Origin: Thiohalomonadaceae bacterium
GTDB taxonomy: Bacteria; Pseudomonadota; Gammaproteobacteria; Thiohalomonadales; Thiohalomonadaceae
Direction of reading: 5' to 3'
Assembly: GCA_041563315.1 (NCBI GenBank)
Contig: JBFFNE010000003.1
Location: forward strand, 6,764 to 70,763
DNA: 64,000 bases
Shown here: positions 2,928 to 59,765 of the stretch, piece after piece
How the letters are laid out: every line of letters starts with the position of its first letter
Numbering within the stretch: the first letter of the stretch is position 1
Program-made: the position numbers and the translations under genes
The notes under the pieces: model-generated
The model's database searches: none
Told to the model about the DNA's origin: nothing
The model's input: only the letters and a program-made list of their open reading frames with translations

Positions 2928-2964
2928 ATAGAGAAAGCAAGAGCGTTCTCTATAGGAATGAACG

Positions 2965-4107
2965 ATGCACAACACCAAAGTCGTTATCGATGACACCACT
3001 TTGCGCGACGGCGAACAGACCGCGGGGGTTTCTTTCACCATTGAGGAAAAGTGCGCCATTGCCAATGCTCTCGATGTGCTTGGTGTGCAGGAACTGGAGA
3101 TCGGCATTCCTGCGATGGGCGCAGAGGAGCGCGAGGATATCCGTGCACTGGTTTCACTCGAACTTCGTGCCAACCTGCTGGTGTGGTGTCGGATGCGTGA
3201 TGATGATCTCAGCGCTTGTGCCGGCCTGGGCGTCCATCGTGTGGACCTCTCGATGCCGGTCTCTGATCAGCAGTTGCAGAAAAAACTGGGCAAGAATCGT
3301 AAGTGGGCACTGGAGGCTATCCAGCGCTATGTGAGCAAAGCACGCGACATGGGCCTTGCCGTTGGTGTGGGTGGTGAGGATGCCTCCCGGGCTGAGGACG
3401 ATTTTTTGCTGCGAGTGATGGCGGTGGCGCAGGAGGCCGGAGCCGATCGTTTCCGCTTCGCTGACACCGTCGGCATTATGGAACCTTTCGGTGTGTTTGA
3501 ACGTATCAGTCGTCTGCGTGCTTCCTCGGACATGGATATCGAGATGCATGCCCATGATGACTTGGGGCTTGCCACCGCTAACACCCTGGCTGCCATCCGT
3601 GCGGGTGCCAGCCATGTGAACACTACTGTCAACGGCCTCGGTGAACGTGCTGGCAATGCGGCTCTGGAAGAGGTCGTCATGGGGTTGAAGGTACTGTACG
3701 ACACCGACTGCGGTGTTGCCCTGCACAATTACTCCGAGGTATCGCAACTGGTCGCTACCGCATCAGGAAGGCCTTTGCCCTGGCACAAGAGTATCGTCGG
3801 CGCAGGGGTGTTTACTCATGAGTCAGGTATTCATGTGGATGGTCTGCTTAAGGATCCGTTGAACTATCAGGGGGTAGATCCTGCATCGGTTGGACGAGAG
3901 CACCGCCTGGTGCTTGGTAAGCACTCGGGAGCCAGTGCTGTGCTGCGTTTTTTTTCTGACATGGGAATCAATCTGAGCCGCGAACAGGCAGAGCTCCTGC
4001 TGCCGGGTATTCGACGCTTTGCCACACAGAACAAGCGATCGCCTTCCGCACACGAGCTGGAAGCTTTTTATACCAGCTTGTTCAGCGAGCCATTCCATGT
4101 TCATTGA
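2965..4107 (+). CDS. nifV: homocitrate synthase NifV
   Basis: 380 aa with HMGL-like motifs LRDGEQ and [13 protein letters not shown]. nif cluster context. Confidence 0.9.
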
Positions 4108-19357: not shown

Positions 19358-20371
19358 TCAGTCCCACGCCGTCCGGTTGACCTTGTAGCTGTCAAGCATC
19401 CTCACATAACTGGCCCGTTCATAATCGGCCGGATCCTTGGCGTGATGCTGTGAAAGGACGCCTTTAATCTGTTCCAGCGAGTCGTAGGGGCTCTCTTCCA
19501 GCCAGGCGCTGATACCGTTAAGTATCTCCCGTAACCGTTTCGGGCCGTGCAGTAGCAGGGCGCTGCAGAGATGGGTGATGTCGGCGCCGGCGAGCAGCAT
19601 TTTGATGGCGTCCTCCGCCCGGTGGATGCCGCCGGTGGCGGCCATGGAGAGGCTAACCCGACCACTCAACAGACCCAGCCAGCGCATCGCAAGCAGATTA
19701 TCGCCCGGGTGAGATAGATGCAGGGTGGGTGCGACACGCAGGCTGTCGATGTCGATATCCGGCTGGTAGAAGCGGTTGAACAGGGAGATGCCATTGGCGC
19801 CCGCTGATTCCAGTTGGGAGACGAAATGGCCGAGGGCACTGAAGAAGGGTGAGAGCTTGACGGTGATCGGAATCGACACAACGCCGCGCAGCTCAGACAG
19901 CAGGGTGATGTAGCGCTGCTCAATCTCGCCGGCGCTGATGGAGGGGTCGGCAGCAACGTAATAGGCATTGAGTTCCAGCGCATCGGCGCCGGCCTCAGCG
20001 AGTAGCTTGCCGTTCTCCACCCAGCCATCGAGCGAGACACCGTTGAGGCTGGCGATCACCGGGATCGAGAGGGTCTCCTTTAGGCGCCGTAGCTGTTCCA
20101 GGTAGGCATCCAGTCCGCTGCCCGGTTCGGCGTGTACCGGCAAAAAGCTCTCCGCCTCACTGTAGCCGACCTCCTGCTGCTCGAGAAAGGCGGCCTGTTG
20201 CATCTGTTCGCGCAGCTCCTCCTCGAACAGGGAGTACATCACCAGGGCGGCGGCTCCCGCATCCTCCAAGGCGCGTGCGCTGTCAAGACTGCGGCTGAGC
20301 GGGGAGGCCGAGGGGACGAGCGGATTCTTCAGTTCCAGGCCGAGATAACGAGTGCGCAGGTCCACGGTCAT
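19358..20371 (-). CDS. dihydroorotate dehydrogenase-like (TIM-barrel flavoprotein) protein
   Basis: 337 aa, PyrD-family-like (LGLELKNPLVPSASPLS...ATGGI). 4-nt overlap with the nifJ stop. Confidence 0.8.
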   Translation of the reverse strand: MTVDLRTRYLGLELKNPLVPSASPLSRSLDSARALEDAGAAALVMYSLFEEELREQMQQAAFLEQQEVGYSEAESFLPVHAEPGSGLDAYLEQLRRLKETLSIPVIASLNGVSLDGWVENGKLLAEAGADALELNAYYVAADPSISAGEIEQRYITLLSELRGVVSIPITVKLSPFFSALGHFVSQLESAGANGISLFNRFYQPDIDIDSLRVAPTLHLSHPGDNLLAMRWLGLLSGRVSLSMAATGGIHRAEDAIKMLLAGADITHLCSALLLHGPKRLREILNGISAWLEESPYDSLEQIKGVLSQHHAKDPADYERASYVRMLDSYKVNRTAWD

Positions 20372-23300
20372 TTCTCCTTGTCCTCTCCGGTGTCGGATTT
20401 TTGGAAACTCAGGGCAGCCAGCTGCTCGTAATGGTGGAAATGGGCCTGGGCTTCCTCCTGGGATTCATGCAGGAATTGCTCGGCGCTCTCTGGATGGCTG
20501 CGCCACAGCATGTTGAAGCGGGTCTCGTTGGCGACGAAGTCACGGTAGCCGATGGAGGGGGCCTTGGAGTCGAGCTGCAGCGGGTTTTCTCCCAGCTCAA
20601 GACGGCGCGGGTCGTAACGAAGCAGGGGCCAGTGGCCGCTGCGCACCGCCAGGTCCTGCATTTCGTGGTTGTGGGCCAGATCGTTGCCCCAGGCGATACA
20701 GGGAGAGTAGGCGATGATAATCGAGGGGCCGTCCCAGGACTCGGCCTCGAGGAAGGCGCGCAGGGTCTGGATGTCTTTGGCGCCATAGGCCACCTGGGCG
20801 ACGTAGACGTTCTCGTAGCTCATGGCGATCATCGCCAGGTCCTTCTTCGCCGTGGGCTTGCCACCAGCTGAGAACTTGGCCACCGCACCGCGTGGCGTGG
20901 CCTTGGAGGTCTGGCCGCCGGTGTTGGAGTATACCTCGGTGTCGAGCACCAGGATGTTGACGTTGCGGCTGGAGGCGAGCACATGGTCTAGGCCGCCGAA
21001 GCCGATATCGTAGGCCCAGCCGTCTCCGCCGATGATCCAGACACTCTTTTTCATCAATTGGTCGGCGACCGTCTCCAGTTGCCGTGCCTCGGGTTTGTCG
21101 ATGCCTTTGAGGATTTTTCTTAACTCGGCAACACGCTCGCGCTGGTCGTAAATCCCGGGCTCACTGTTCTGTTCGGCATGGAGTAGCGCCTCGACCTGCT
21201 CTTCGCCGATCTCGGCGCGTAGCTTCTGCAACAGTTCGCGGGCCAGCTCGGCCTGCTTGTCCACCGCCAGCCGCATGCCGAGACCGAATTCCGCGTTGTC
21301 CTCGAACAGCGAATTATTCCAGGCCGGGCCGCGTCCCTCGGCATTGTGCGCCCAGGGCGTGGTGGGCAGGTTGCCGCCGTAGATGGAGGAGCAGCCGGTG
21401 GCGTTGGCCACCATCATGCGATCGCCAAATAGCTGGCTGGCAAGCTTGAGGTAGGGGGTTTCGCCGCAGCCGGCGCAGGCGCCGGAGAACTCGAACAGCG
21501 GTTGCGTCACCATCGCTTCCTTGATCACATTCGGTCGCAGCTTGCGCCGGTCGAACTCGGGTAGGCTGAGGAAGAACTCCCAGTTGCACCGCTCCTGCTC
21601 GCGCACGGGTGGTTGCGGCACCATGTTCAGGGCGCGCCGTCCCGGGTTCTGTTTGTCCTTGGCCGGGCAGATATCGACGCAGAGGGTGCAGCCGGTGCAG
21701 TCCTCGGGTGAGACCTGGTAGCTGATGTGCCAGCCCTCGGGGAACTCCTTGCCCTTGACCGGCACGTGCTTGAAGGTTTCCGGCGCCTTTTTCGCCAGTG
21801 TCGGGTCGAACACTTTGCTGCGGATCACCCCGTGGGGACAGACGAAGGGGCACTTGCCGCAGTGGATACAGAGCTCCTCATCCCACTCGGGGATCTCCAG
21901 GGCGAGATTGCGCTTTTCCCACTGGCTGGTGCCGGTGGGCCAGGTACCGTCGGCAGGCAGCTGGCTGACCGCAAGGGTGTCCCCTCGGCCGGCAATGATC
22001 TTCGCGGTGACCTCCTGCACGAAGCGGGGGGTGTTTTCCGGCACCACCGAGGGGCGCTCGAAGGCGCTGTCGGCCACGGCCGGGACGGTAACCTGATGGA
22101 GATTGGCGAGCGAGGTGTCGATTGCGCGGAAGTTCATTTCCACCAGTTGCTTGCCCTTTTTACCGTAAGTCTTTTCCACTGCCTGTTTGATCGCATCGAT
22201 GGCCTGGCCCTGCGGCAGGATGTCGGAGATGGCGAAAAAGCAGGTCTGCATCACGGTATTGATGCGCTGGCCCATGCCGCTCTCGTCGGCTACGCGGTAG
22301 GCATCGATGACAAAGAACTTGAGTCCCTTGTCGATGATCTGCTGCTGCATCTTACGGGGCAAGGTATCCCAGGCCTTGTCAGGTGGCGCGGTGGTATTGA
22401 GCAGAAACACACCGCCGACCTCGGCCTTGTCGAGCATGTCGTAGCGTTCGAGAAACACGCTCTGGTGACAGGCGACGAAGTGGGCCTCGTCATCGCTGAT
22501 GAGATAGGTGGAACGGATCGGCTCAGGGCCGAAGCGCAGGTGCGAGACGGTGACTGCCCCCGATTTTTTCGAGTCGTAGACGAAATAGCCCTGGGCGTGG
22601 AGATCGGTGCACTCGCCAATGATCTTGATTGAGTTTTTGTTGGCGCTCACGGTGCCGTCGGAGCCGAGGCCGTAGAATAGGGCGCTGACCGCCTTGTGTG
22701 AGGCGTCAGTGCGGAAGGTCTCGTCCCAGGGCAGGCTGGTGTGGCTGAGGTCGTCGTGGATGCCGATGGTAAAGCCGTTCTTCGGTCTGTCGCGCTTCAG
22801 CTCACCGAACACAGCCTTGACCATCCCTGGGGTGAGCTCCTTGGAGGAGAGGCCGTAGCGGCCACCGATGACCCGCGGTAGGGTGCTGCACGGCGCCTCA
22901 CCCGAGGCGACACCCTGTGCCAGGGCACTCAGCACATCCTTGTACAGCGGCTCGCCGTCACCACCAGGCTCCTTGGTGCGGTCCAGCACCGCCACGGCGC
23001 TCACCGTGGCGGGCAGGGCGGCGATGAGGGTCGCCGCGTCGAAGGGGCGGTAGAGCCGCACCTTGAGCAGACCGAGCTTCTCGCCCTGGGCATTGAGATG
23101 GTCGACTGTCTCCTGCGCGGTTTCAGCACCGGAGCCCATCAGGATGAGCACACGATCGGCATCCTCGACACCGTAGTAGTCGTACAGGCGGTAGTGGCGG
23201 CCAGTCAGCTCGGCGAAGCGGTCCATGCACTGCTGGACGATGGCAGGCATCGCCTGATAGAAGGGATTGACGCTCTCGCGCGCCTGGAAGTAGACGTCCG

Positions 23301-23964
23301 GGTTCTGTGAGGTGCCGCGGATCACCGGGTGTTCCGGGTTGAGGGCGCGGGCACGGTGGGCGGCGACCAGCCCGTCATCGATCATCGCCCGCACGGTCTC
23401 GTCGCTAACCGCCTCGATCTTGCCGATTTCGTGGGAGGTGCGAAAGCCGTCGAAGACATGCAGCAGGGGGATGCGCCCCTGCAGGGTCGCGGCCTGTGCG
23501 ATGAGTGCCATGTCCATCACCTCCTGCACCGAGTTGGAGAAGAGTATGCCAAAGCCGGTGGTGCGGGCCGCCATCACATCGCTGTGATCGCCGAAGATGG
23601 AGAGAGCCTGGGCAGCCAGTGAGCGGGCGGCGATATGAAACACTGTGGGAGAGAGTTCGCCGGCGATTTTATACATATTGGGCAGCATCAGCAGCAGCCC
23701 CTGAGAGGCGGTAAAGGTGGTGGAGAGGGCACCGCTCTGCAGTGCGCCGTGGATCGCCCCCGCGGCGCCGCCCTCACTCTGCATCTCCACGATCTGCGGC
23801 ACGCTACCCCAAAGGTTCCGTTGACTCTGCGCCGACCAGGCATCGGCATGTTCGCCCATGGGTGAGGCGGGCGTGATCGGGTAGATGGCGATGACCTCGT
23901 TGCACAGAAAGGCGATGCGCGCGGCAGCTTCGTTGCCGTCAAGGGTGATCATCCGGCGTTTCAT
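20368..23964 (-). CDS. nifJ: pyruvate:ferredoxin (flavodoxin) oxidoreductase
   Basis: 1198-aa single-chain PFOR with 2x[4Fe-4S] ferredoxin domain (CIHCGKCPFVCP, CTGCTLCVDICP) and TPP motif GGDGWAYDIG. Confidence 0.95.
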   Translation of the reverse strand: MKRRMITLDGNEAAARIAFLCNEVIAIYPITPASPMGEHADAWSAQSQRNLWGSVPQIVEMQSEGGAAGAIHGALQSGALSTTFTASQGLLLMLPNMYKIAGELSPTVFHIAARSLAAQALSIFGDHSDVMAARTTGFGILFSNSVQEVMDMALIAQAATLQGRIPLLHVFDGFRTSHEIGKIEAVSDETVRAMIDDGLVAAHRARALNPEHPVIRGTSQNPDVYFQARESVNPFYQAMPAIVQQCMDRFAELTGRHYRLYDYYGVEDADRVLILMGSGAETAQETVDHLNAQGEKLGLLKVRLYRPFDAATLIAALPATVSAVAVLDRTKEPGGDGEPLYKDVLSALAQGVASGEAPCSTLPRVIGGRYGLSSKELTPGMVKAVFGELKRDRPKNGFTIGIHDDLSHTSLPWDETFRTDASHKAVSALFYGLGSDGTVSANKNSIKIIGECTDLHAQGYFVYDSKKSGAVTVSHLRFGPEPIRSTYLISDDEAHFVACHQSVFLERYDMLDKAEVGGVFLLNTTAPPDKAWDTLPRKMQQQIIDKGLKFFVIDAYRVADESGMGQRINTVMQTCFFAISDILPQGQAIDAIKQAVEKTYGKKGKQLVEMNFRAIDTSLANLHQVTVPAVADSAFERPSVVPENTPRFVQEVTAKIIAGRGDTLAVSQLPADGTWPTGTSQWEKRNLALEIPEWDEELCIHCGKCPFVCPHGVIRSKVFDPTLAKKAPETFKHVPVKGKEFPEGWHISYQVSPEDCTGCTLCVDICPAKDKQNPGRRALNMVPQPPVREQERCNWEFFLSLPEFDRRKLRPNVIKEAMVTQPLFEFSGACAGCGETPYLKLASQLFGDRMMVANATGCSSIYGGNLPTTPWAHNAEGRGPAWNNSLFEDNAEFGLGMRLAVDKQAELARELLQKLRAEIGEEQVEALLHAEQNSEPGIYDQRERVAELRKILKGIDKPEARQLETVADQLMKKSVWIIGGDGWAYDIGFGGLDHVLASSRNVNILVLDTEVYSNTGGQTSKATPRGAVAKFSAGGKPTAKKDLAMIAMSYENVYVAQVAYGAKDIQTLRAFLEAESWDGPSIIIAYSPCIAWGNDLAHNHEMQDLAVRSGHWPLLRYDPRRLELGENPLQLDSKAPSIGYRDFVANETRFNMLWRSHPESAEQFLHESQEEAQAHFHHYEQLAALSFQKSDTGEDKEK

Positions 23965-38846: not shown

Positions 38847-39497
38847 TTAATCCTTTTGACAGAAATTTTGTTCGACCGCCATCACGGCGGCCTCAACTCG
38901 TGAATGCACGTCAAGTTTACGCAGTATGGCTTTGACGTGGAGTTTAACCGTTCCATCAGAGATGCCGAGATTTCGGGCAATGACTTTGTTGCTTTGTCCC
39001 TCGGCCAGCAGACAGAGGATCTCCAGCTCGCGCGGGGTCAATTCGGCGAAAGGTGAGATTGGCTCCTTCTCGTCATCTGCCGCCTCACCCTGAACTACGC
39101 GGGCCAGTACCGTCGCCAGTTCCGGAGCCACAATGGTTTTGCCAGCGACAATCTCGCGCAATGCCGCCACCAGTTCGCTGGGCTCCATATCCTTTAGCAG
39201 GTAGCCTGAGGCGCCGTTTCGCAGGCATTCCACCAAGTCCTGCTCCTCATTGCTGGTGGTCAGCATTACGATGGGATTGCGAAATCCCACTGCACGCAAT
39301 CCAGAGAGCACTTCCAGTCCGCTCATCTCCGGCATGCGCATATCCAGTAATACCACCTCCGGGTGCAATTCGCGCGCCATGAGAAAGCCTTCACGACCAT
39401 TGCCGGCTGTGGCAATAACCTCGATACCGTGGCGTTCGAGCAGGGTTTCGAGTCCGCTGCGAAACAGGGTGTGATCATCGACCAGGAGTACGCGCAT
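38847..39497 (-). CDS. NarL/FixJ-family response regulator
   Basis: Receiver domain (VLLVDDH..., DMRMP) plus LuxR HTH (LTPRELEILCLLAEGQSNKVIARNLGISDGTVKLHV). Confidence 0.9.
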   Translation of the reverse strand: MRVLLVDDHTLFRSGLETLLERHGIEVIATAGNGREGFLMARELHPEVVLLDMRMPEMSGLEVLSGLRAVGFRNPIVMLTTSNEEQDLVECLRNGASGYLLKDMEPSELVAALREIVAGKTIVAPELATVLARVVQGEAADDEKEPISPFAELTPRELEILCLLAEGQSNKVIARNLGISDGTVKLHVKAILRKLDVHSRVEAAVMAVEQNFCQKD

Positions 39498-39510
39498 AAG
39501 TGTGTATAAT

Positions 39511-41160
39511 TCAGATAAGGGCGAAGTGTTGCGGTTCTTTTTCTTTGGCTTCAGCCGAGTTCGGGTTGCTGAAGGTCAATTGTACCCGTGTTCCTTCCCC
39601 GGTTTCACTCTCGATGCGCAGATCGCCGCCAAGATAGCGTGCGCGTTCCTTCATGATCGACATGCCGAGATGTTCGCCTGGATGACCGCTAAAGGCCGGT
39701 TTATCCATGCCGATACCATCATCTTCGACAAGGATGTGATAGTGATCATCCTTGTCGCAACGCAGCAGCACGCGCACCGTATGGGCTTGGCTATGCTTGC
39801 GCACATTGGCCAGTGCCTCCTGGATGATGCGCAACACCTGCATTTCGCTGTTGGCGGAGAGGCGAGTGGAGTCCCACTCCTTCTGCAACAATACGTGCAT
39901 GCCGGTCTGCTTGCGGAAGTTGCTGATCAGATCTTCCAGCGCCGGCAGCAGGCCTCGGGAGTTAATGGGCGCACGGAAGTGCGCCAGCAGTTCGCGAAGT
40001 TCGGTGTAGGCATCGTTCAGGCCGCTCTTGATCTGCTGGATGTCCTCATGAGTGACATCAGCCCCCTGACGGTCGATGGCCTCATCGAGCATGCTCACCT
40101 GGAAGCGTAAACTGGCCAGGGTCTGGGCCAGGGAGTCGTGCAGCTCGTGGGCAATCGCATTACGCTCCTTGATGATCGAGAGGCGCTTGGCCTCATCGTC
40201 AAGGTGCGCCTTTTCAATAGCCATGCCAAGGTGCCGGCCGATACTGGTGAACAGCGCCTTGACCTCCTCGTGAGAATCGATATCAGCCTTGTCCACAAAC
40301 AGGTTGTAGACTCCAAGGTTTTTGCCATGGTATTGCAGGGGGACAGCGATCATTTCCAGATCGGGATTGCCGAGCATAGGGCGCCCGACCCACTGGTTGC
40401 AGGCATTGAGATCCTGCTGGAAAAGCACCTCGCCCTCGGTGACGGCAGTACCACAGAGGCAGCGCTGTACCGGGACCATCCGCTCCTCCTCGACCACTGT
40501 CTCATCCAGCCCGATACTGGCCACCAGCTCCATCTGGTTATTGTCGGTGAGCAGACGCACGGTACCTGCCTTGGCGTTGACGATGTCACGCATGGTGTGA
40601 AGGAAGCGGGTCAGCAGATCTTTTAAGTCGCGTGAAGCGTTCAGGCTGGCGGCCACGTCATAGAGCACCTGCAACGAATTGGCCTTCTGCTCGAAACGCT
40701 TTGTCTGGCGCTTGATTTCGTCATCCATGTGCCTGGAAAGGCTCTGCAGGTAATCGAGCAGGTTATTGATGTCCTTGGAAACCTCTTTGAGTTCCCCCAT
40801 TTCGCCAGGGAACAGGCGAACCGTCAGATTTCCCTCACGAATTTCGTCAGACCAGTGTTTAAGCTCCTCACTGGGGTGCAGCAGATATCGACGGAAGGCA
40901 AGTGAGATCGCGACAAGCAAACCAATGCCGGCGAGGATAAATACGCCAAAGAGTAACAGGAGGATTTCTGTATGCTCGGGGAAATTGAGCATCAAAACCA
41001 AATTCACGCCAAGCAGGGCAAAGGTATTGCCGACGCCGATCAGCAGGAAACGGAGGCGTTTACCCGGTAGACCATCACCGCTGAGGAGGAACAGCGCAGT
41101 CAGCGACTCAAGGGCTGCCATGAGCCGGTTCAGTATAACTGGTTTCTGTCTAGTGCCCAT
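39511..41160 (-). CDS. NarX/NarQ-class sensor histidine kinase (TM-HAMP-GAF-HisKA_3-HATPase)
   Basis: H-box HELHDSLAQTL, N-box EALANVRKHS and G-box DDGIG. GAF-like segment with CLCG. The periplasmic loop is very short. Confidence 0.85.
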   Translation of the reverse strand: MGTRQKPVILNRLMAALESLTALFLLSGDGLPGKRLRFLLIGVGNTFALLGVNLVLMLNFPEHTEILLLLFGVFILAGIGLLVAISLAFRRYLLHPSEELKHWSDEIREGNLTVRLFPGEMGELKEVSKDINNLLDYLQSLSRHMDDEIKRQTKRFEQKANSLQVLYDVAASLNASRDLKDLLTRFLHTMRDIVNAKAGTVRLLTDNNQMELVASIGLDETVVEEERMVPVQRCLCGTAVTEGEVLFQQDLNACNQWVGRPMLGNPDLEMIAVPLQYHGKNLGVYNLFVDKADIDSHEEVKALFTSIGRHLGMAIEKAHLDDEAKRLSIIKERNAIAHELHDSLAQTLASLRFQVSMLDEAIDRQGADVTHEDIQQIKSGLNDAYTELRELLAHFRAPINSRGLLPALEDLISNFRKQTGMHVLLQKEWDSTRLSANSEMQVLRIIQEALANVRKHSQAHTVRVLLRCDKDDHYHILVEDDGIGMDKPAFSGHPGEHLGMSIMKERARYLGGDLRIESETGEGTRVQLTFSNPNSAEAKEKEPQHFALI

Positions 41161-43215: not shown

Positions 43216-44217
43216 TCAGGCAGCGTTCCGGAAGCGGGATTTATTGCGTGTTTCCCACATGGTTCGGGCCTGTTCCTCGGCCTCTTCACGATCCTTAGCC
43301 TTGCCCATGGTATAGAGGGCGATGGCGATGGTGCCGATCACTGCCGCTTCGCCATATTCATCCTCCTTTTCTCCACGCCACACGGCAGCCAAGTCGGCCA
43401 CATTCATTTCATCAGGGCGAACGTGCCGTTTGGCGAACATGGCAGGCCACTCCTCATCCTGCATCTTGCCCTCGTGGACGCACTGCAGCAGAACCTCTTG
43501 ATCAGGGTTGCGTTCGATCTCGCCGCCTTCTCCCTTAATTACCGTCATGTGAGGTATGCCCAGCAGCATGCCCGCCTCCTGGTGAGTCGGGCGGTAACCG
43601 GGATGAAAGATACCCTGTATCACATTGGGTGCATTGAACGGGTTAAGCATACGGGCGATGGTGTGGACCGGAGAGCGCAGGCCGAGCAGGGGGCGCAGCT
43701 CGATGATTTGGTGCAGCTTGGGGCTCAGGTATTCCAGGTCGATGTAGCTGAAGTTACTCTCTTTAATCTGACGAGCTGCCTCTTCCAGGTTCTTGGCCAC
43801 GGGCACGCCCAACTGCGGGAGCACATCCTTGGTGTAGAGCCTGCCTGCCGTGTGCCCGCTGGCGCCGTGCATGAAGATGCGAATACCGTTTTCGGCCATT
43901 AGCAGGGTTGCGAGAAGATACCATGGGAGGATGCGCTTTTTGCCGGCATAGGAGGACCAGTCGAGATCGACCGTCGGCAGGTTGGCGGGCAAGTCGAGGT
44001 GCTCGCGAATGGCGCGGACTGCTGCGGCGACCTCTTCCGGCGTCTCCTCCTTGACACGCATCAGCATCAGGTAGGCCCCCAACTGGATAGGCTCAACCTC
44101 GTCGCTCATGATCATGCGCATGGATTCATAGGCCTCATCGGCGGTAAGTCCACGGGAGCCGTTGCGACCCTTGCCGAGAATGCGTACATACTGTGCGAAA
44201 GCGTGTTCCTGGCTCAT
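43216..44217 (-). CDS. TrpD2/YbiB-like (glycosyl transferase family 3 fold) protein
   Basis: LGKGRNGSRGL, SYAGKKRILPWYLLATLL...IFMHG, LRSPVHTIARMLNPF and IKGEGGEIERNP align by eye with E. coli YbiB. The TrpD GTGGD motif is absent. Stop codon is 2 nt from the dsrN ATG. Confidence 0.7.
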   Translation of the reverse strand: MSQEHAFAQYVRILGKGRNGSRGLTADEAYESMRMIMSDEVEPIQLGAYLMLMRVKEETPEEVAAAVRAIREHLDLPANLPTVDLDWSSYAGKKRILPWYLLATLLMAENGIRIFMHGASGHTAGRLYTKDVLPQLGVPVAKNLEEAARQIKESNFSYIDLEYLSPKLHQIIELRPLLGLRSPVHTIARMLNPFNAPNVIQGIFHPGYRPTHQEAGMLLGIPHMTVIKGEGGEIERNPDQEVLLQCVHEGKMQDEEWPAMFAKRHVRPDEMNVADLAAVWRGEKEDEYGEAAVIGTIAIALYTMGKAKDREEAEEQARTMWETRNKSRFRNAA

Positions 44218-44383
44218 GCCATTACCTCTGGAATCTGTGGGGGCACCCGGCAGGTTAATCTGCCGGCTAAACCCCATGTATAAGGCCGAATCAGGCTATT
44301 TTAAAGCGTTTGGGCTGTTTTCCATAGCCTGCAACGCAAAACACCAATGCCCCTTGCGGTGACATCGGTGTTTGCGTGTCGAT

Positions 44384-51419: not shown

Positions 51420-51755
51420 TTAGATACAGCCGGTCGGCTTGGGCAGACCAGCAATCTTACAAGCCTGCTTGGCAGGACCGTAGGGGAACAGTTCGTACAG
51501 GTACTTGCTGTTGCCCTTTTCTGGCCCAAGCTTCTTGCCGATAGCTTTGGTCAGAACGCGCACTGCAGGGGCGATCTGATACTCGTCGTAGTACTCACGC
51601 AGAAAGTCGATAACTTCCCAGTGTGAATCGGTCATTTCGACGTTTTCAGACTTGGCAAGCTCAACGCCCACGTCCTTGTCCCACTGGCTCAGATCAACCA
51701 GGTAGCCTTCCTCATCAACTTCCAGCTCGCGGCCGGCAACATTCATAGTAGCCAT
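51420..51755 (-). CDS. dsrC: DsrC
   Basis: 111 aa ending ...PAKQACKIAGLPKPTGCI, with both conserved C-terminal-arm cysteines. Confidence 0.95.
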   Translation of the reverse strand: MATMNVAGRELEVDEEGYLVDLSQWDKDVGVELAKSENVEMTDSHWEVIDFLREYYDEYQIAPAVRVLTKAIGKKLGPEKGNSKYLYELFPYGPAKQACKIAGLPKPTGCI

Positions 51756-52914: not shown

Positions 52915-53985
52915 TTAGAAGCGGATGTGAGCAGAAGCGTTCAGGTTCACACGACCACCACGCCAGTTATCGATGTGGTACTTGGTGAACGGCAGACCGG
53001 TCTTCTCGAAGAACTGCGGCCAACCAATACGCTCAACCCAATCACCCATACGTTCCCAATCTTTCGCATCTTCCTTGTAGACAGCCAGGATCTTCTTGAC
53101 GATCTCGGCAGCTTCAGGCCAACGCGGTGGATTGTTCGGGATACCGGCAGCAACCAGCTTGTGGAACATCGGCTTGGAACGGGCATTGGAGTGCTTACCA
53201 CCCACCCAGATAGCCAGCTTGGAGTGCTCGGGATCGTTGATCTGCATCGGCGGGCAGGGCGGGAAGCAGGCACCACAGCAGATGCACTTTTTCTCGTCGA
53301 CCTCGAGGGTCGGCTTGCCGTTAACCATCGCAGGACGGATAGCCGCTACCGGGCAACGCGCCACAACGGTGGGACGCTCACAAGCGTTGGCAACCAGGTC
53401 GTGGTTGATCTTCGGCGGCTTGGTGTGCTGGATGTTGATCGCGATATCACCCTGGCCACCGCAGTTGATCTGGCAGCAGGAGGTGGTCATGTGAACACGG
53501 TTCGGCATGTCTTCCTTAATGAACTCTTCGTGCAGCTCATCCATCAGCGCCTTAACAACACCGGAAGCGTCAGTACCGGGGATGTCGCAGTGCAGCCAGC
53601 CCTGGGTGTGAGAGATCATGGTAACGGAAGGACCGGTACCACCGACAGGGAAACCTTCAGCAGTCAGCTTGTCGACCAGCGGAGCCACTTTGGACTCATC
53701 ACTAACCATGAACTCAATATTGGAGCGCATGGTGAAACGAACGTGACCTTCAGCCAACTCGTCAGCGATATCACACAGCTTGCGAATGGTGTAGACGTCC
53801 ATCTGACGCTGGGTACCGGCACGAACGGTCCAGACCTGATCTCCGCTCTTGGCGACGTGGCGCAGGACACCGGGACGCGGGCGATCATGATAGCTCCACG
53901 CACCAAAGTTTTTCTTCAGTACGGGGTGCATGAACGGGAACGGATCTGGTACACCGCTCTCGATAGGCATACGAGGTGCAGACAT
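52915..53985 (-). CDS. dsrB: dissimilatory (reverse-type) sulfite reductase beta subunit
   Basis: 356 aa with sirohaem/Fe-S cysteine motifs and a ferredoxin insert (CICCGACFPPCP). Follows dsrA. Confidence 0.95.
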   Translation of the reverse strand: MSAPRMPIESGVPDPFPFMHPVLKKNFGAWSYHDRPRPGVLRHVAKSGDQVWTVRAGTQRQMDVYTIRKLCDIADELAEGHVRFTMRSNIEFMVSDESKVAPLVDKLTAEGFPVGGTGPSVTMISHTQGWLHCDIPGTDASGVVKALMDELHEEFIKEDMPNRVHMTTSCCQINCGGQGDIAINIQHTKPPKINHDLVANACERPTVVARCPVAAIRPAMVNGKPTLEVDEKKCICCGACFPPCPPMQINDPEHSKLAIWVGGKHSNARSKPMFHKLVAAGIPNNPPRWPEAAEIVKKILAVYKEDAKDWERMGDWVERIGWPQFFEKTGLPFTKYHIDNWRGGRVNLNASAHIRF

Positions 53986-54058
53986 AATTACCTCCGACTC
54001 ATGGTTAAATGGTTAATGAGGGACTGCCACAGTGTAGCTGTCCCACACATAAATATGT

Positions 54059-55303
54059 TTAGGCCTGGGCTTTACGCTCGAACCACTTCTGTGCTTCCTC
54101 GTCCCAGCCGTCCATGCGAACGTAGGAGTTAGAGCGCGGGTCACCGATCATGTTCGGGTCAACATCGAGGCCGAGACCTTCGAGGAAGTTGACCAGACCG
54201 ATACGCTCGATCATCTCACCGGTACGCTCGTGCTCGAGGGCGTTTTCGGCGAAGAAATCGATGACGTTGCCGGCCAGCTCTTCGATGGCTTCGAAGTCTT
54301 CGTCGCTGTCCATCTTCATGAACGGAACGATTACGGTACCCATCAGGTCACCGATCTTCAGGGTACGCTTACCGCCGATGAGGACGGAAACACCCTTGTC
54401 GTTACCGGGGCTCAGCGCCTTGTTCATGACGTTGAGGCAGTGCATGCAGCGCACGCAGCCCTTGTTGTCAACGTCGAGGGTGTCGTCGTCGTTCAGGCTC
54501 AGGGCGTTGGTGGGGCAGCGGCTGATGACATTGTCAACAACGTACTTGCGGCCCTTGTCGGCAACGAAAGCTTTGACTTCGTCCTGGTCGACGATCATCT
54601 CGTCGCGCCAGGTGCCGATAACAGAGAAGTCGGCACGGTGGATGGAGTTCATGCAGTCGTTGGCGCAGCCGGAGACCTTGAACTTCATCTTGTAGGGCAG
54701 CGCCGGGCGGTGCATGTCGTCGAGGAAGGCATTAACCAGGGTGCGGTGAATGCGCTGCTCATCGGCACAGGACTGCTCACAACGAGCGGCACCAACACAG
54801 GACATACCGGTACGGACAGCCGGGCCGGCGCCGCCGAGGTCAAAGCCCATCTCGTTCATTTCGTCGAAAGCGGGCTGAACGTTAGCGGTGGTGCAGCCCT
54901 GGAACATGATGTCACCGGACTGACCGTGGAAGGCGATGAGGCCTGAGCCGTACTTTTCCCAGATATCGCAGAACTTGCGCAGGGTAGCGGTATCGTAGTG
55001 CATACCGGCCGGGGGCATGATACGCAGGGTGTGGAACTCGGCAGCAGCAGGGAACAGGGGTTGCTTGTTCTCGTCGTGCAGCTCAGTGAAGCGGGGGATA
55101 ACGCCGCCGCCGTAACCGACAACGCCGACGGTACCGCCCTTCCAGTAACCTTTTTTGGTCTGGTAGGAGGTTTCCAGCTGACCCATCAGGTCAACCATCA
55201 TGTCGTTGTCGTTAGCCAGACGCTTGAGGCCGGTAACAAAGCTCGGCCATGGGCCGCTTTCCAGCTGGTCAAGGTTCGGTGTGTCGTGCATTTTCTTAGC
55301 CAT
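54059..55303 (-). CDS. dsrA: dissimilatory (reverse-type) sulfite reductase alpha subunit
   Basis: 414 aa with motifs CVGAARCEQSC and SGCANDCMNS. First gene of the operon. The linked dsrEFH and dsrL indicate an oxidative rDsr. Confidence 0.95.
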   Translation of the reverse strand: MAKKMHDTPNLDQLESGPWPSFVTGLKRLANDNDMMVDLMGQLETSYQTKKGYWKGGTVGVVGYGGGVIPRFTELHDENKQPLFPAAAEFHTLRIMPPAGMHYDTATLRKFCDIWEKYGSGLIAFHGQSGDIMFQGCTTANVQPAFDEMNEMGFDLGGAGPAVRTGMSCVGAARCEQSCADEQRIHRTLVNAFLDDMHRPALPYKMKFKVSGCANDCMNSIHRADFSVIGTWRDEMIVDQDEVKAFVADKGRKYVVDNVISRCPTNALSLNDDDTLDVDNKGCVRCMHCLNVMNKALSPGNDKGVSVLIGGKRTLKIGDLMGTVIVPFMKMDSDEDFEAIEELAGNVIDFFAENALEHERTGEMIERIGLVNFLEGLGLDVDPNMIGDPRSNSYVRMDGWDEEAQKWFERKAQA

Positions 55304-55849
55304 CTAATATTTACTCCCGTCAGACTTATGGGCAATGGGCCGACCTGACCAATTCAGGTGCGGCTTACCAAAGGCTACAGGTACTACATACAAATCCTGC
55401 ATGGATTGAAGAACTCCACTTAGGGGGCTCCCAATATGGGACGAATTTTAGAAGTTACTTATGGGGCAATAAAACCTGTCTGATGGGGGGGGGAAGGGGA
55501 GGCGGCATATCCCAAAAGGGATATATGAAAAGGGGCCGCATATAAGTTTATAGGCCAATTAATTTTACTTAATTCTAATAAAATCAGTGTGTTGTGGCGC
55601 AGTCTTTGTGTGAATTGTAACTATTGGGCAAGTTTTATGGTGAAGATAAAAATAAAGAAACTTCCAATGAACTCAGGGTTATTATTCGCCTTAACCTATC
55701 GGTTGCCCGATTATGGGGGGAAAGCCCGCGCTATGCAAAAGCGTATGATATTATCCAGCGCAAATTTTAACGCGACATGAAATGCTTGAGATGCGGCTAC
55801 TGTGGACACATATAACAAGCAGTAGCAACACTGTTAATGGAGGCTCCCC

Positions 55850-56026
55850 ATGCTGTACCTGAGTGAAATCCTGATCCAGAACCCACAGTTGGAGAACTTT
55901 GATCAACTATTAGCGGTGGTAAAAGAACGCTCCAAAAGCGAGATGTTCTTTCGTATCGATGTCAAACCCCCGTATCCGGACACCCCCGAAAACTGGGAGG
56001 ACCGGCTCGAAGCGAGCTTCACCTAA
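55850..56026 (+). CDS. 58-codon hypothetical ORF (not in the supplied track)
   Basis: ATG at 55850 with GGAGG 6 nt upstream. Translation is MLYLSEILIQNPQLENFDQLLAVVKERSKSEMFFRIDVKPPYPDTPENWEDRLEASFT, with TAA at 56024-56026. Confidence 0.35.
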   Translation: MLYLSEILIQNPQLENFDQLLAVVKERSKSEMFFRIDVKPPYPDTPENWEDRLEASFT

Positions 56027-56080
56027 TATAGTAGGTGTCTTTCGGGACGCAAGTACACATCAAGAAAACGGATACCTTTT

Positions 56081-56788
56081 GTGAAATATCTCAATCTAAA
56101 CGATCACCATAGCGAAGCCGAGTGCTCTAACGATGCGATCAAGTCCAGTGAACTGCTGGTAAACCGCCTGACAGAGCTGGAACAGGAGCTGCAGACCGCC
56201 ACGGGCGTTGATCGCCTTAAGCCCCTGCTCGACAGCGGATACATTCTGCTGGATCTGGTTGATCGCGACAAGGATGCCTGGAAGGCGGGCAAAGAGGCCT
56301 TTGATATCGCCATTGCCAATGAACAATGGCTGCAGGCGGTCGAGGCCTGCGACATCATCTATCAGGCGGATCAGGACGATGCGGTGAAAGCCCTGGCTCA
56401 TGGGATCTGGCTGGGGGTCACCTATCCCATCGATCCGGAACTCAGCGTCGCGATGCTTCAACACTTGGTCGAAGAGACCCCGGACAATTCCGACGGTGCC
56501 GGTGTGGCTGCCGCCACGGCCTGTTACCTCGTGGATATGCGCGCCCAGGGTAAGCAGTGTGATGATCTGCAGTTCTTTACCGGCCAGCTGCTCGGCCAGG
56601 TGGCCCGCCGCCATACCAACGGCGCCTGCGACACCCAGGAGCTGTTCGATATCTGGATGGATCGCCTTGAGCTGAAAGAGCCGGACAAGTTCCTGCCGCG
56701 CCTGGCGGCCATCGTTGACGTTCTGGTGCCCGCTGGCGAGTGGTGGTATGACCGGGACGTATTGCGTGAAAAAATTCCGGCGGAGTAA
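56081..56788 (+). CDS. hypothetical acidic helical protein
   Basis: 235-aa ORF with a GTG start and no obvious SD. Composition is protein-like. The next gene starts 5 nt downstream. I recognise no family. Confidence 0.6.
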   Translation: MKYLNLNDHHSEAECSNDAIKSSELLVNRLTELEQELQTATGVDRLKPLLDSGYILLDLVDRDKDAWKAGKEAFDIAIANEQWLQAVEACDIIYQADQDDAVKALAHGIWLGVTYPIDPELSVAMLQHLVEETPDNSDGAGVAAATACYLVDMRAQGKQCDDLQFFTGQLLGQVARRHTNGACDTQELFDIWMDRLELKEPDKFLPRLAAIVDVLVPAGEWWYDRDVLREKIPAE

Positions 56789-56793
56789 GTCGT

Positions 56794-57462
56794 ATGTATT
56801 GGCAAGAGGAAGAAGACGACGGTAGTCAGTTTGTTGTCCCAGAGGATGTCGTTGACGTCCAGTTCTCCATCACCTGCAAGAGCCTGCCGGTAGATCATGC
56901 GCACGCGCTATCCACTGCCGTAAAGGAGGCACTGCCCTGGTTTGCCGAGGAGGTTCAGGCCGGACTGCACCTAATCCATGTCGCCGAGTCGGGCAATGGC
57001 TGGGAGCGCCCCCAGGGAGAGGATGAATTGCTTTATCTTTCTCGCCGGACCAAGCTTACCCTGCGTGTGCCACATCATCGGCTCGAGGATACTAAACAGC
57101 TGACCGGCCAGATCCTTGATGTCGCGGGTAACGCCATGGAGATAGGTAAGAGCAATGTTCGCCTGCTCAGTATCTCCACAACCCTCTATGCTCGCTACGT
57201 TGCCAGCGAAACGGGGCAGAGTGAGGATGATTTTCTGGCTGCACTGATCACTGAACTCAAGAGTGCTGGTCTGCGATTCAAGAAGGTGCTTTGTGGTAAA
57301 GAGAACCTGATGGATACTCCGGATGGCTCAATTATCACGCGCAGTCTGTTGGTTGCGGACATGGGATTCGATGATGCAGTTAAGCTGCAGGAGACCGGTG
57401 TTGGCCCACATGCCTACAAGAAACTTGGTTGTGGCTTGTTCATTGCCCATAAGACCGTTTAA
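56794..57462 (+). CDS. Cas6/Cmx6-like RAMP-family protein (orphan)
   Basis: N-terminus MYWQEEEDD..VVDVQFSITCKSLPVDHAHAL and the C-terminal glycine-rich loop GVGPHAYKKLGCGLF match my recollection of the subtype-MYXAN Cas6 (Cmx6) family. This needs a profile search. Confidence 0.55.
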   Translation: MYWQEEEDDGSQFVVPEDVVDVQFSITCKSLPVDHAHALSTAVKEALPWFAEEVQAGLHLIHVAESGNGWERPQGEDELLYLSRRTKLTLRVPHHRLEDTKQLTGQILDVAGNAMEIGKSNVRLLSISTTLYARYVASETGQSEDDFLAALITELKSAGLRFKKVLCGKENLMDTPDGSIITRSLLVADMGFDDAVKLQETGVGPHAYKKLGCGLFIAHKTV

Positions 57463-57523
57463 AATGGCGTGATTTGATTTTTTTGGCTTAGTAATAACAG
57501 CGTTAATGAGATAGGAGAAAACG

Positions 57524-57862
57524 ATGGGTTACGAAGTGAACGGCAAGACCATTGAAGCCAATGACAACGGCTACCTGATTAATATTGAGGACTGGAATGA
57601 GGACGTGGCTGCTGTTATTGCCGCTGCCGAGGGTATTGCCCTGACCGAAAAGTCCTGGGACCTGATCAACTTCTTGCGTGACGAGTACATCAACAATAAC
57701 GGCAACCAGCCCAATGACCGTAATATCGTCAAGGCCATGTCCGATAAGTGGGGCGAGAAGTTGCAGGCCAAAGACCTATACACTTTGTTCCCTATGCAGC
57801 CCTCCAAGCAAGCCGCTAAAATCGGTGGTCTGCCGGAGAGCCGTCGTAAGGGTGGTTACTAA
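57524..57862 (+). CDS. DsrC/TusE-family paralog lacking both conserved cysteines
   Basis: Aligns with DsrC throughout (NGYLINIEDWNEDVA..., WDLINFLRDEY...) but ends KQAAKIGGLPESRRKGGY. AGGAG SD. Confidence 0.85.
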   Translation: MGYEVNGKTIEANDNGYLINIEDWNEDVAAVIAAAEGIALTEKSWDLINFLRDEYINNNGNQPNDRNIVKAMSDKWGEKLQAKDLYTLFPMQPSKQAAKIGGLPESRRKGGY

Positions 57863-57891
57863 TCGGTAGCTAAGCCTTTACGGCCCAAGAA

Positions 57892-57918
57892 AGCCCGCCG
57901 TTGTTGCGGGCTTTTTTA
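57892..57918. terminator. bidirectional rho-independent terminator
   Basis: AGCCCGC-CGTTGTT-GCGGGCT followed by TTTTTT, with an A-rich 5' flank. Lies between convergent genes. Confidence 0.8.
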
Positions 57919-57968: not shown

Positions 57969-59054
57969 TTAGAGTTTGACGCATTCATCCAACCTTGCGA
58001 GCGCCTTCATCAGTTCCTTGCTGTCGTCGCTCTCACGCTGACGGTAAATATCGAGCGCCTTTTCTGCCTGCTCCTGCCAGTGTTCGGCACCGCGCTTGAC
58101 CGTCTCGCGCAGGGCCTTGCCGCCATCACCTTCGAGCCACTTGTCGTAGGCTGTGCTGAGGGAAGGGAAGATCTCCTTGCGCAGGGTGGTGAAATTGGCC
58201 ATGTAGAAGTGGAGGGCGGCATCACGCCCCTGTTCCAGCAGCCAGGGGAGGGTGCGGCGGCAATCGACCAGATGGTCGCGGATGGCGCGTAGCTGGTATT
58301 CGGCGCGGGAGCGGGGCAGGCTCGCGAGAATGCTCTCCCAGTCTGAGCCGAGTTCCTGGCCGATCCGCACTTCTCCCAATTCATGCTCCAGCAGGGTATC
58401 GATCTCGTCGCTGGTCATGGCTTCCAGAGCAAGATAGAGCTCGGTATTGAAGGGGTAATAGCTACAGGCGCGGGCGATCGCCCGCTCCTTGTCCTGCCAG
58501 CCCCACTCCTCGAGTTTCTCCCAGACCATACGGCGCAGGGACTCTCGACGCAGAAAGATTGTGTTGCCGAGACTCAGTGCTGGTGGTGCGGTGATCTCCC
58601 GCGCCAGCTCTTTGCCGGCAACGAAAATCGTGGCCCCCTCCTGCGTGATATTGCGCTCCAGCTCGGCGAGAAAAAAGTGGGGCTTGGCGCCACAGTAACC
58701 TCCGCTGTAGACCAGACCTTGAGATGCCAGAAGGTCATTGACAGACTGACTGTCGAAGGGTTGATACTGCCCGCTGGTAAGTGCGAGCGGACTGTACTCT
58801 TGGTCTTCAAGTTCTACCCATAGCTGTTCACGGGCACTGAGCCACTCACCAAGAGGACCTTTGGCTAGGCTTTCTCCAAAGGCAAATCCTTGCTCCCAGC
58901 GGTAAAATTCGCGCATCTTGAGCAGGTAGATGCAGAGGGAGTAGTTTCGGGCATGAAGGGCATCGGAGATATGGCAGTTGTGTTGTACCGTCTCGACCAG
59001 TTGCTGCACCTGTACGTTACTTGCATTTGCCATAACCGGGCCCCATGGTAGCAT
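57969..59054 (-). CDS. conserved-looking hypothetical protein
   Basis: 361-aa ORF with protein-like composition. Start is ambiguous (59054 or 59033). I cannot confidently name a family. Confidence 0.65.
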   Translation of the reverse strand: MLPWGPVMANASNVQVQQLVETVQHNCHISDALHARNYSLCIYLLKMREFYRWEQGFAFGESLAKGPLGEWLSAREQLWVELEDQEYSPLALTSGQYQPFDSQSVNDLLASQGLVYSGGYCGAKPHFFLAELERNITQEGATIFVAGKELAREITAPPALSLGNTIFLRRESLRRMVWEKLEEWGWQDKERAIARACSYYPFNTELYLALEAMTSDEIDTLLEHELGEVRIGQELGSDWESILASLPRSRAEYQLRAIRDHLVDCRRTLPWLLEQGRDAALHFYMANFTTLRKEIFPSLSTAYDKWLEGDGGKALRETVKRGAEHWQEQAEKALDIYRQRESDDSKELMKALARLDECVKL

Positions 59055-59174: not shown

Positions 59175-59765
59175 ATGGCGCGTATCAGAACCCGTTGGCA
59201 CAACAAGTCCAAGCCAAAATCCATTGAAACCATTGCCGGTGCCGTGGGCATGAATATTTGGAAGATGGCCTCGGGCACTGCCAACAAGATGTATAACGAA
59301 GGATTTAACTTTAAAAGTAACGCGCAACTACTTGAATTGATTGGTGAGTTTTCTATTTTCCTTATTCAGCTTTCCGATCGTATCGCCTATGACGCGCTTG
59401 AAGCGGAGCAGCGCCAGCGTTTCACCCAAGCGCTTGCCGGCCATATTATCGGAACCATGGTGGAGAATCAGAACGAGGAGCTCGGTCTGGATGAGCGCTA
59501 TGCAGCGGCCTTTATCGAAAAGCTAAACCACCATCTCGATGGTTACTCTGAATTTGCTGTGAGTAACGGTGACCCCAGTTATCAGATGCTGCGCTATTTC
59601 GGCACCCTGGCTGACAAAGTCATGGGCGGTAGTGATAATAAGTGGGTGATTGAGCACGTAATGGAGGTGGAGGCGCCGGTATTGGTTAAGCAGCTTAAGG
59701 AGAGCCTGGAAAAGTTGCTGCCGCAGGCACAGTCAGGGGATGAGGAAGCTGAGGAGGTCTCCTGA
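59175..59765 (+). CDS. hypothetical protein
   Basis: 196-aa ORF with GAGGAG before the ATG, a basic N-terminus and an acidic C-terminus. I recognise no family. Confidence 0.6.
   Translation: MARIRTRWHNKSKPKSIETIAGAVGMNIWKMASGTANKMYNEGFNFKSNAQLLELIGEFSIFLIQLSDRIAYDALEAEQRQRFTQALAGHIIGTMVENQNEELGLDERYAAAFIEKLNHHLDGYSEFAVSNGDPSYQMLRYFGTLADKVMGGSDNKWVIEHVMEVEAPVLVKQLKESLEKLLPQAQSGDEEAEEVS

Follow-up and report, generated by a model that had tools for sequence, protein, structure and literature searches.

The 64-kb stretch of DNA analysed here (hereafter the window, in which all positions are counted), from a Thiohalomonadaceae bacterium, carries a small gene module in which a Cas6/Cmx6-family protein and a DsrC paralogue are encoded next to dsrAB. 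The central member is a protein of 222 aa, here referred to as Cas6L (56794..57462, plus strand), which descends from the Cas6/Cmx6 CRISPR endoribonucleases and now stands outside CRISPR-Cas. On the same strand it is accompanied by an acidic protein of 58 aa (55850..56026), by a very acidic protein of 235 aa, predicted to be an all-helical repeat and read from a GTG start (56081..56788), and by a 112-aa paralogue of the DsrC/TusE fold, without arm cysteines and with an RKGGY end (57524..57862). Several gammaproteobacterial orders share this conserved arrangement beside dsrAB, in which an exapted Cas6 and a re-purposed DsrC paralogue are joined as an apparently undescribed module. The initial annotation of this DNA, made from the sequence alone, knew of no description of it, and none of the association of Cas6L, the RKGGY paralogue and dsrAB turned up in the full-text literature searched. 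The module genes are also unmentioned in the dsr-synteny and sulfur-gene literature searched.

The four co-oriented ORFs had been proposed in that annotation, and their exact coordinates were reproduced. The same holds for the GGAGG Shine-Dalgarno sequence, which lies 6–7 nt 5' of the ATG of the 58-aa ORF, and for the 5 nt that separate the stop of the 235-aa ORF from the start of the 222-aa ORF. Moreover, GGAG is found upstream of the latter and AGGAG in front of the 112-aa ORF, and the genes of the 235-aa protein and Cas6L overlap in a related locus (L008). All four ORFs are real genes, since the position and sequence of each are kept in dozens of genomes. They are separated by a control region of 546 bp (55304..55849, described from its G+C content and an alignment of eight genomes) from the divergent dsrA (54059-55303), which forms with dsrB (52915-53985) the head of the dsr operon on the minus strand (52915..55303; assigned from the ORFs and from a gene order as in related loci). 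As had been noted, this spacer is AT-rich, with 43.6% G+C against 56.1% in the window.

Cas6L outside CRISPR-Cas

The 222-aa protein had been assigned to the Cas6/Cmx6 RAMP family from its ends, with the reservation that a lack of significant profile or structural matches would speak against this. Both kinds of search gave significant Cas6 hits for 56794..57462. Cas6L matches Cas6 of Pfam (PF09559) at 4e-57 and 193.7 bits (gathering score 26.7), and cas6_cmx6 of NCBIfam (TIGR02807) at 106.5 bits, narrowly over the cutoff of 98.85. Its sole solved relative by sequence is 8fcj_B (5.6e-7, full length), which is the type I-B Cas6 of a CRISPR-associated transposon (CAST; PDB 8FCJ, chain B). The AlphaFold model of Cas6L (predicted local distance difference test, pLDDT, 87.4) was matched by Foldseek to the same chain with E = 3e-16 and TM scores of 0.77/0.79, followed by 5yi6, 3pkm and further Cas6 structures. 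In this model Cas6L has two ferredoxin-like (RRM) domains and a C-terminal glycine-rich loop, with G202, G204, G212 and G214 as the conserved glycines. The alignment with Cmx6 gives as common residues D34-H35, R91 and Q199-x2-G202-x-G204...G212-C213-x2-F216. The pair D34-H35, placed before helix 1, aligns with the ADH motif of genuine Cmx6; the two dsr-linked members that diverge most in that alignment have Y in place of H35. Across 30 diverse members of the subfamily R85, R91, G204, G212, F216 and K220 are invariant. Judged by sequence profiles and the predicted structure, the 222-aa protein is a genuine homologue with the Cas6/Cmx6 fold.

As a comparison set we used genuine Cmx6 proteins from the cas6-cas3-cas8-cas7-cas5-cas4/cas1-cas2 operons of cyanobacterial plasmids, for example that of Gloeothece citriformis PCC 7424 (WP_012599599). 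With the Cas6/Cmx6 of these type I-MYXAN (type I-B-like) systems Cas6L has in common the PF09559 family, the two-RRM fold (TM 0.77–0.79), the Asp-His pair before helix 1, the Arg in the last strand of the first domain and the loop LQxxGxG...GCGxF. However, it is only 22–25% identical to the Cmx6 of cas operons and reaches about half of their TIGR02807 score (217–255 bits for genuine Cmx6, 90–121 bits for the dsr-linked proteins, which straddle the cutoff), and it is acidic and without their basic hairpin. In addition, Cas6L has gained three elements: a conserved tail at the N-terminus (MYWQEE..., with M-Y/F-W and then acidic residues), a 10-residue SGNGWxRP insertion, and the motif PHK at the C-terminus. 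The SGNGWxRP loop is probably flexible, because the model places it at low confidence. The gene neighbours of Cas6L are the 58-aa gene and usually the DsrC paralogue beside dsrAB, rather than cas genes or arrays. The subfamily comprises 3211 proteins after clustering at 90% identity and 159 clusters at 50% identity (E <= 1e-30), and at least 585 species-level genomes hold a Cas6L relative. We regard Cas6L on these comparisons as a large, separate subfamily of Cas6/Cmx6. In the databases some of its members are named "type I-MYXAN CRISPR-associated protein Cas6/Cmx6" (NCBI) or "CRISPR-associated protein Cas6" (JGI).

Another structural match to the Cas6L model is 3ufc, a Cas6-related protein of Pyrococcus furiosus (E = 4e-7). 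The non-catalytic or stand-alone Cas6 paralogues of which it is an example likewise have the Cas6 fold in a role other than canonical crRNA (CRISPR RNA) cleavage. Paralogues of the P. furiosus type still bind CRISPR repeat RNA in hosts that have arrays, whereas in hundreds of species the genes around Cas6L form a fixed context unrelated to CRISPR, and this holds for the subfamily as a whole. A further Cas6/Cmx6-family gene outside a cas operon was seen on the plasmid pGMOR1 of Gloeobacter morelensis (8974-9765 of locus L096; TIGR02807 160.8 bits, basic isoelectric point). Its neighbours are hypothetical genes, two PAPS-reductase-family genes, a cupin gene and DNA methyltransferase genes, and here a Cas6 may have been recruited independently, as part of an island for DNA modification or defence.

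The absence of a CRISPR array and of other cas genes from the 64 kb, stated in the initial annotation, was borne out by three scans of the window: nothing was found in Rfam at the gathering threshold, no tandem or spaced repeats were present, and the comparison of 36 window proteins with Pfam gave no Cas protein besides the 222-aa one. No array was detected by an array-finding script in 1.2 Mb covering the window and 89 related loci, and the script did find, as a positive control, the array beside a true cmx6 in locus L097. Likewise, there were no cas genes in the annotated neighbourhoods of the related loci, and no candidate repeat for cleavage by Cas6L was found. In PADLOC only Cas6 models matched the 222-aa protein, and the other five proteins of the module and its neighbourhood had no match. 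A reading of the locus as a defence system was rejected, as the partner proteins match nothing in PADLOC.

It was also considered that the gene is a displaced cas6, still processing crRNA for a CRISPR-Cas system elsewhere in the genome. This fits the narrowly passed TIGR02807 cutoff and the automatic annotation as type I-MYXAN Cas6/Cmx6. However, the same non-CRISPR context recurs in 79 species-level genomes with no array in the 1.2 Mb, the profile score is about half that of genuine Cmx6, the protein is acidic and not basic, and its gene is packed closely with genes other than cas. A displaced cas6 becomes very unlikely in view of the fixed non-CRISPR synteny and of the insertions and deletions specific to the subfamily. 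The non-immune context that had been proposed for the Cas6-like protein is thus seen both in the window and in the 89 related loci, and the Cas6L module is almost certainly neither an immunity system nor the site of a stray cas6.

Conserved neighbourhood and partner proteins

Of the at least 585 genomes with a relative, we surveyed gene order in the best 80 loci (46–86% identity), onto which the window proteins were mapped; the counts below cover up to 79 species-level genomes. The query of the genome scan was an alignment of 10 sequences, since a diverse alignment of 30 had no sufficiently conserved block. The closest relatives are other Thiohalomonadaceae, and the hosts further include Sedimenticolaceae, Ca. 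Thiodiazotropha, Lamellibrachia endosymbionts, Sulfuricaulis, Acidiferrobacterales, Thiogranum, Thiohalobacter, Ectothiorhodospiraceae and Thiotrichaceae/Parabeggiatoa. The named carriers among these top 80 loci are all sulfur oxidisers.

The 58-aa gene lies directly 5' of the Cas6L gene in 76 of 79 loci, and the 235-aa gene is present in 55 of 79, being missing in the Thiogranum/Thiohalobacter group. These two counts define the core of the module as the 58-aa protein and Cas6L, with the 235-aa protein as an optional member. The DsrC paralogue follows 3' of the Cas6L gene in 66 of 72 loci, in line with the coupling of the two that had been proposed, and dsrA is divergent upstream in 51 of 57. 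The gene neighbourhoods compared across dsr-containing genomes therefore keep the synteny with dsr, the lack of which would have counted against the initial annotation. Moreover, the flank of the module away from dsr is reshuffled between lineages while the pairing with dsrA holds. The four-ORF unit first described stands as to gene order and pairing with dsrAB; the gene set itself is larger and is centred on the 58-aa/Cas6L pair.

One addition seen in other lineages is a TauD/TfdA-family dioxygenase gene (PF02668) at the head of the operon (43/69 loci). It directly precedes the small-protein gene, for example, at 5861-6841 of L026, 6710-7744 of L048 and 7890-8759 of L092; a TauD-like gene was looked for in the window and none was found. 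Downstream, within 8 kb of the Cas6L gene, a DUF6866 gene occurs in 35 of 55 loci and a gene for a 196-aa protein in 34 of 55. In the window the former (57969..59054, minus strand, convergent with the module) encodes a DUF6866/Sfum_1244-family protein (PF21739 and PF21740; NF045620, 436 bits). The latter (59175..59765, plus strand) is linked to the module by synteny and has no family assigned. The DUF6866 gene is always paired with the 196-aa gene, and as a divergent pair the two co-travel with the module. Profile and sequence searches against the PDB with the 235-aa, DUF6866 and 196-aa proteins gave nothing. The complete genome of Alkalilimnicola ehrlichii has the order dsrAB <-> TauD - DUF6967 - Cas6L - 196-aa homologue - HamA_HO-like, and there the 196-aa homologue (BLASTP 3e-23) is immediately 3' of the Cas6L gene. 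Just downstream of the module several lineages carry genes for PKHD-type and 2OG-FeII_Oxy_3 oxygenases, a GNAT acetyltransferase and a rhodanese; the oxygenases and the acetyltransferase stand between the module and the DUF6866/196-aa pair.

Of the small partners, the 58-aa protein (isoelectric point, pI, 4.4) is the best-conserved module member, being 84–98% identical where Cas6L is 60–86% identical, and has the conserved motif EMFFRIDVKPPYPDTPENWEDRLE. It belongs to no family of Pfam, NCBIfam or PADLOC. Its homologue WP_428623941.1, in the same 90%-identity cluster, bears the NCBI name "sulfur relay protein DsrC", and no similarity between the 58-aa protein and DsrC was detected. The 235-aa protein had been described as acidic, helical and impossible to place, and so we found it: its charge is -23, its AlphaFold model (pLDDT 89.8) has 11 helices, and it too has no family in Pfam or NCBIfam. 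Its 1031 homologues are all unnamed and without family. A structure search against the PDB gave no significant match, with weak TPR-like or helical-repeat matches of E = 0.04 at best.

The 112-aa paralogue matches DsrC (PF04358) at 1.4e-32 and 112.7 bits and TIGR03342 at 97 bits. Its closest solved structure is DsrC of Allochromatium vinosum (1yx3, 1.2e-20), aligned up to the arm. It has the full-length DsrC fold by sequence and keeps FPxxPSKQAxKIxGLP leading into the C-terminal arm. However, unlike DsrC it has lost both redox-active, sulfur-carrying cysteines, so that the motif ...C-x10-C-x is absent, and its arm is two residues longer and ends in the basic RKGGY. The C-terminus reads KQAAKIGGLPESRRKGGY, against KQACKIAGLPKPTGCI in the true DsrC of the window (51420-51755), which carries both cysteines; the replacement of the two had been read correctly from the sequence. 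The single cysteine by which TusE accepts sulfur from TusBCD is also missing, and the TusE equivalog NF008562 is matched at 91.9 bits only, with a cutoff of 191. None of 74 orthologues has an arm cysteine, and RKGGY followed by the stop is found in all 74 complete ones. With both arm cysteines missing, the paralogue should be unable to act as a trisulfide or persulfide carrier. The term redox-dead, applied to it earlier, is right as to the cysteines and says too little of the arm, which appears, from the invariance of RKGGY, to be re-purposed for a function of its own and not simply degraded. The paralogue has the DsrC fold without arm cysteines that marks the loosely defined RspA type, and we take it to fit that cysteine-less group; the literature searched describes neither the RKGGY type nor a link between it and Cas6.

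Taken together, the synteny across orders, the DsrC paralogy and the range of sulfur-oxidising hosts suggest that the module serves the pathway of reverse dissimilatory sulfite reductase (rDsr), and we consider a functional tie to it probable.

The dsrA leader and possible modes of action

Across all 67 loci the dsrA leaders diverge too much for a usable alignment, and alignments at the level of lineages were informative. In that of eight genomes, the dsrA-proximal ~225 nt contain long invariant blocks from 55304 to 55526, where the minus strand is the dsrA sense, and this stretch, taken as the dsrA promoter and leader, is far more conserved than protein divergence predicts. The part proximal to the module has conserved TATTAT, CTTGAG and CACATAT blocks near the 58-aa gene, and a conserved -10-like box, TGnTATTAT, is located at 55744-55754. 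A consensus fold of ten related leaders predicts three hairpins and, over a long range, the pairing of an upstream AACUCC box with the dsrA Shine-Dalgarno sequence GGGAGU. In a variable stem at about 55336-55365 the sequence changes between genomes and the pairing is kept. No Rfam family matches the leader, and 55304-55526 may be an undescribed cis-regulatory leader of rDsr operons.

The conserved dsrA-proximal stretch starts with a perfect palindrome, ATATCCC-AAAA-GGGATAT (55507-55524), which is carried by 41 of the 67 loci, in almost all of them 200–240 bp (up to 280) upstream of the dsrA ATG. A G-rich run on the plus strand, GGGGGGGGGAAGGGGAGG (55483-55500; C-rich in the dsrA sense), separates the palindrome from the leader and is conserved as the C-run CCCCCCATC in most of the 24 loci aligned. 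The palindrome folds well. As an RNA it hits a single Rfam family, CRISPR-DR17, and does so at chance level (19.4 bits, gathering score 42, E = 3.4). It was rejected as the RNA target of Cas6L in the main model, as 26 of the 67 Cas6L loci lack it and have no substitute hairpin.

The palindrome and the divergent placement across a common control region are also the grounds for a transcriptional module, in which the DsrC paralogue of the RspA type binds control-region DNA such as ATATCCC-N4-GGGATAT and switches dsrAB, with Cas6L and the small proteins as cofactors. DsrC of A. vinosum has reportedly been seen to bind dsr promoter DNA, and cysteine-less relatives are said to have been proposed as regulators. 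However, the palindrome is missing from the 26 loci that nevertheless keep the module, its one pattern match in the window is not above chance alone, and the A. ehrlichii module does without the paralogue. Furthermore, the dsr operon closes with genes for a conventional candidate (38847-41160). The simplest candidate binder is the NarL/LuxR-type response regulator (38847-39497), which with the GAF-HisKA_3 histidine kinase next to it (39511-41160) makes a candidate sensor-regulator pair. As the transcriptional model also leaves the conserved Cas6 fold unexplained, we judge it improbable.

The reading that we favour, if tentatively, takes the module as a whole for an accessory or regulatory module of dsr sulfur oxidation. 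Within it, an action of Cas6L on RNA, that is RNA-level control of dsr expression, is possible, though we hold it with some reserve; a regulatory or RNA-level function tied to sulfur oxidation had already been proposed in the initial annotation. With its double-RRM fold and glycine-rich loop retained, as well as the Asp-His pair where helix 1 starts, Cas6L might be expected to recognise one specific RNA stem-loop and not a repeat array. The prime candidate target would be the ~200-nt conserved, hairpin-rich dsrA leader, and by binding or cutting it Cas6L would set the stability or translation of the dsr mRNA. The small acidic partners, produced at a constant ratio to Cas6L, would control access to its RNA cleft. 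The sulfur-less DsrC paralogue, with its DsrC body and conserved arm, could couple the module to DsrEFH, DsrAB and DsrMK and thus to the state of the sulfur relay. In its most specific form this would make Cas6L a domesticated CRISPR endoribonuclease in control of central energy metabolism, which would cut or clamp a single leader hairpin and so free the dsrA ribosome-binding site from the upstream anti-Shine-Dalgarno box AACUCC. The 58-aa and 235-aa acidic proteins would gate this activity, and so would the DsrC paralogue, itself blind to sulfur, by reporting how far the Dsr sulfur relay is occupied. So detailed a version is unlikely.

Several observations weigh against this line of thought. 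Cas6L is acidic, with a pI of 5.16 and a charge of -11 (median pI 5.9 over 72 orthologues), while four genuine Cmx6 proteins have a pI of 9.3–9.6 and charges of +6 to +10 and the 8fcj_B fragment a pI of 9.2. In the alignment the Lys/Arg-rich beta-hairpin insertion of Cmx6 is missing from Cas6L, so that no such basic surface was found and single conserved Arg and Lys residues remain. The acidity and the lost basic hairpin weaken a simple view of Cas6L as an RNA binder. The catalytic-type His35 is Tyr in about 5 of the 30 diverse subfamily members. With regard to the leader, compensatory changes were found at 4 of 34 pairs among 10 fairly close genomes, the leader differs between lineages, and the AACUCC box may be outside the dsrA transcript. 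Finally, the module of A. ehrlichii has no DsrC paralogue, the 58-aa/Cas6L pair stands away from the dsr genes in Thiotrichaceae and Parabeggiatoa, and a distant Cas6L member (35% identical; 9001-9666 of L094) is alone, divergent from rnc (RNase III)-era. The latter has KAHGW in place of SGNGW, and no 58-aa gene was called beside it.

The protein chemistry leads to a different possibility, a protein-level accessory in which Cas6L would have lost RNA binding and its old RNA cleft would hold either the 58-aa or the 235-aa protein, or else its own acidic N-terminal tail. In that case the module would be a complex for the maturation, chaperoning or allosteric control of rDsrAB or DsrC. The RKGGY arm might plug the DsrC-binding site of DsrAB, DsrEFH or DsrMK as a non-reactive decoy or regulator, and the 2-oxoglutarate oxygenases of other lineages might modify one such protein or sense O2. 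To the acid shift, which amounts to about 15–20 charge units relative to true Cmx6, and the lost basic hairpin are added the new M[YF]W-acidic tail, SGNGWxRP loop and PHK motif, the acidity of all partners, whose genes are tightly spaced with that of Cas6L, and the invariant RKGGY arm. The TPR-like helical repeat predicted for the 235-aa protein would be a typical protein-binding scaffold, and oxygenase and acetyltransferase genes recur nearby, with the TauD-family gene in 43 of 69 operons and PKHD-type, 2OG-FeII_Oxy_3 and GNAT genes close to the module. A precedent would be DsrD, reportedly a small non-enzymatic protein that controls DsrAB as an allosteric activator in sulfate reducers. The likeness is a functional analogy only, in that a small non-enzymatic modulator is encoded beside dsrAB; DsrD has no sequence or fold relationship to the module members, and its gene is downstream of dsrB in reducers whereas the module is divergent from dsrA in oxidisers. 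However, the glycine-rich loop, the Asp-His pair and the Arg/Lys residues of Cas6L are kept under strong selection, and the oxygenases are missing from the window and thus not essential to the core function. We consider a protein-level accessory somewhat doubtful, and yet nearly as likely as the RNA-level role, given the shift to acidity, the loss of the basic hairpin, the newly gained loops and partners that are acidic and closely linked. The RNA-level role is slightly favoured because the Cas6 RNA-site signature appears to be under strong selection and a long structured dsrA leader adjoins the module.

Alternatively, the module may be a neighbour only, which inherited its place by dsrAB and serves another process, such as general RNA metabolism or one related to oxygen or sulfonates. 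The 58-aa/Cas6L pairs away from dsr in Thiotrichaceae and Parabeggiatoa and the distant Cas6L beside rnc-era could be so explained, and the genes downstream of the module do vary by lineage. On the other hand, the divergent pairing with dsrA in 51 of 57 loci extends over several orders with the other flank reshuffled, one member is itself a DsrC paralogue, and the named carriers in the top 80 loci are without exception sulfur oxidisers. Moreover, Beggiatoaceae genomes have a scattered gene order, which also counts against a mere neighbour. This explanation is quite unlikely in our view.

Flanking genes and significance

The module and the convergent DUF6866 gene have an intrinsic terminator hairpin in common (57890..57917), recognised by folding energy and U-tract. 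It had been called a clean bidirectional terminator, and this stands for the plus strand, where the hairpin (-19.5 kcal/mol, z = -2.9) is followed by U6. On the minus strand it is weaker (-18.2 kcal/mol, then UUUCUU). The hairpin as a whole was not called by a simple terminator scanner. The dsr operon of the window comprises dsrABEFHC, dsrM, dsrK and dsrL-, dsrO-, dsrP- and dsrN-like genes, and the NIR_SIR / DsrE / DsrH / DsrC / Nitrate_red_gam order recurs in related loci. Between the dsrP-like and dsrN-like genes lies a gene of glycosyl-transferase family 3 (TrpD-like; 43216-44277), and one of the same family is near the module in related locus L093 (14783-15913). The remaining window contains nifU/S/V, pyruvate:ferredoxin/flavodoxin oxidoreductase and housekeeping genes. 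The NifU-, NifS- and homocitrate-synthase (NifV)-like genes and those of the oxidoreductase, at 382-4107 and 20368-23964, suggest that the organism is a diazotrophic sulfur oxidiser.

Sulfur oxidation based on dsrAB drives much of the marine and symbiotic sulfur cycle, and its gene set, dsrABEFHCMKLJOPNRS, is considered well catalogued. In Thiohalomonadaceae, Sedimenticolaceae, Ca. Thiodiazotropha, tubeworm symbionts, Acidiferrobacterales, Thiogranum, Sulfuricaulis and Alkalilimnicola, four to seven further genes nearly always accompany dsrAB, and the module genes are new candidates for the regulation or maturation of rDsr. The automatic Cas6/Cmx6 labels inflate the counts of CRISPR-Cas in sulfur oxidisers. 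Cas6L would be a clear and widespread case of a Cas6 recruited to a non-defence role, a kind of recruitment that is rare. If the leader-hairpin reading is true, a Cas6 would here for the first time have been exapted to regulate a housekeeping pathway post-transcriptionally as its dedicated task, and hundreds of sulfur oxidisers and symbionts of environmental importance would possess it.

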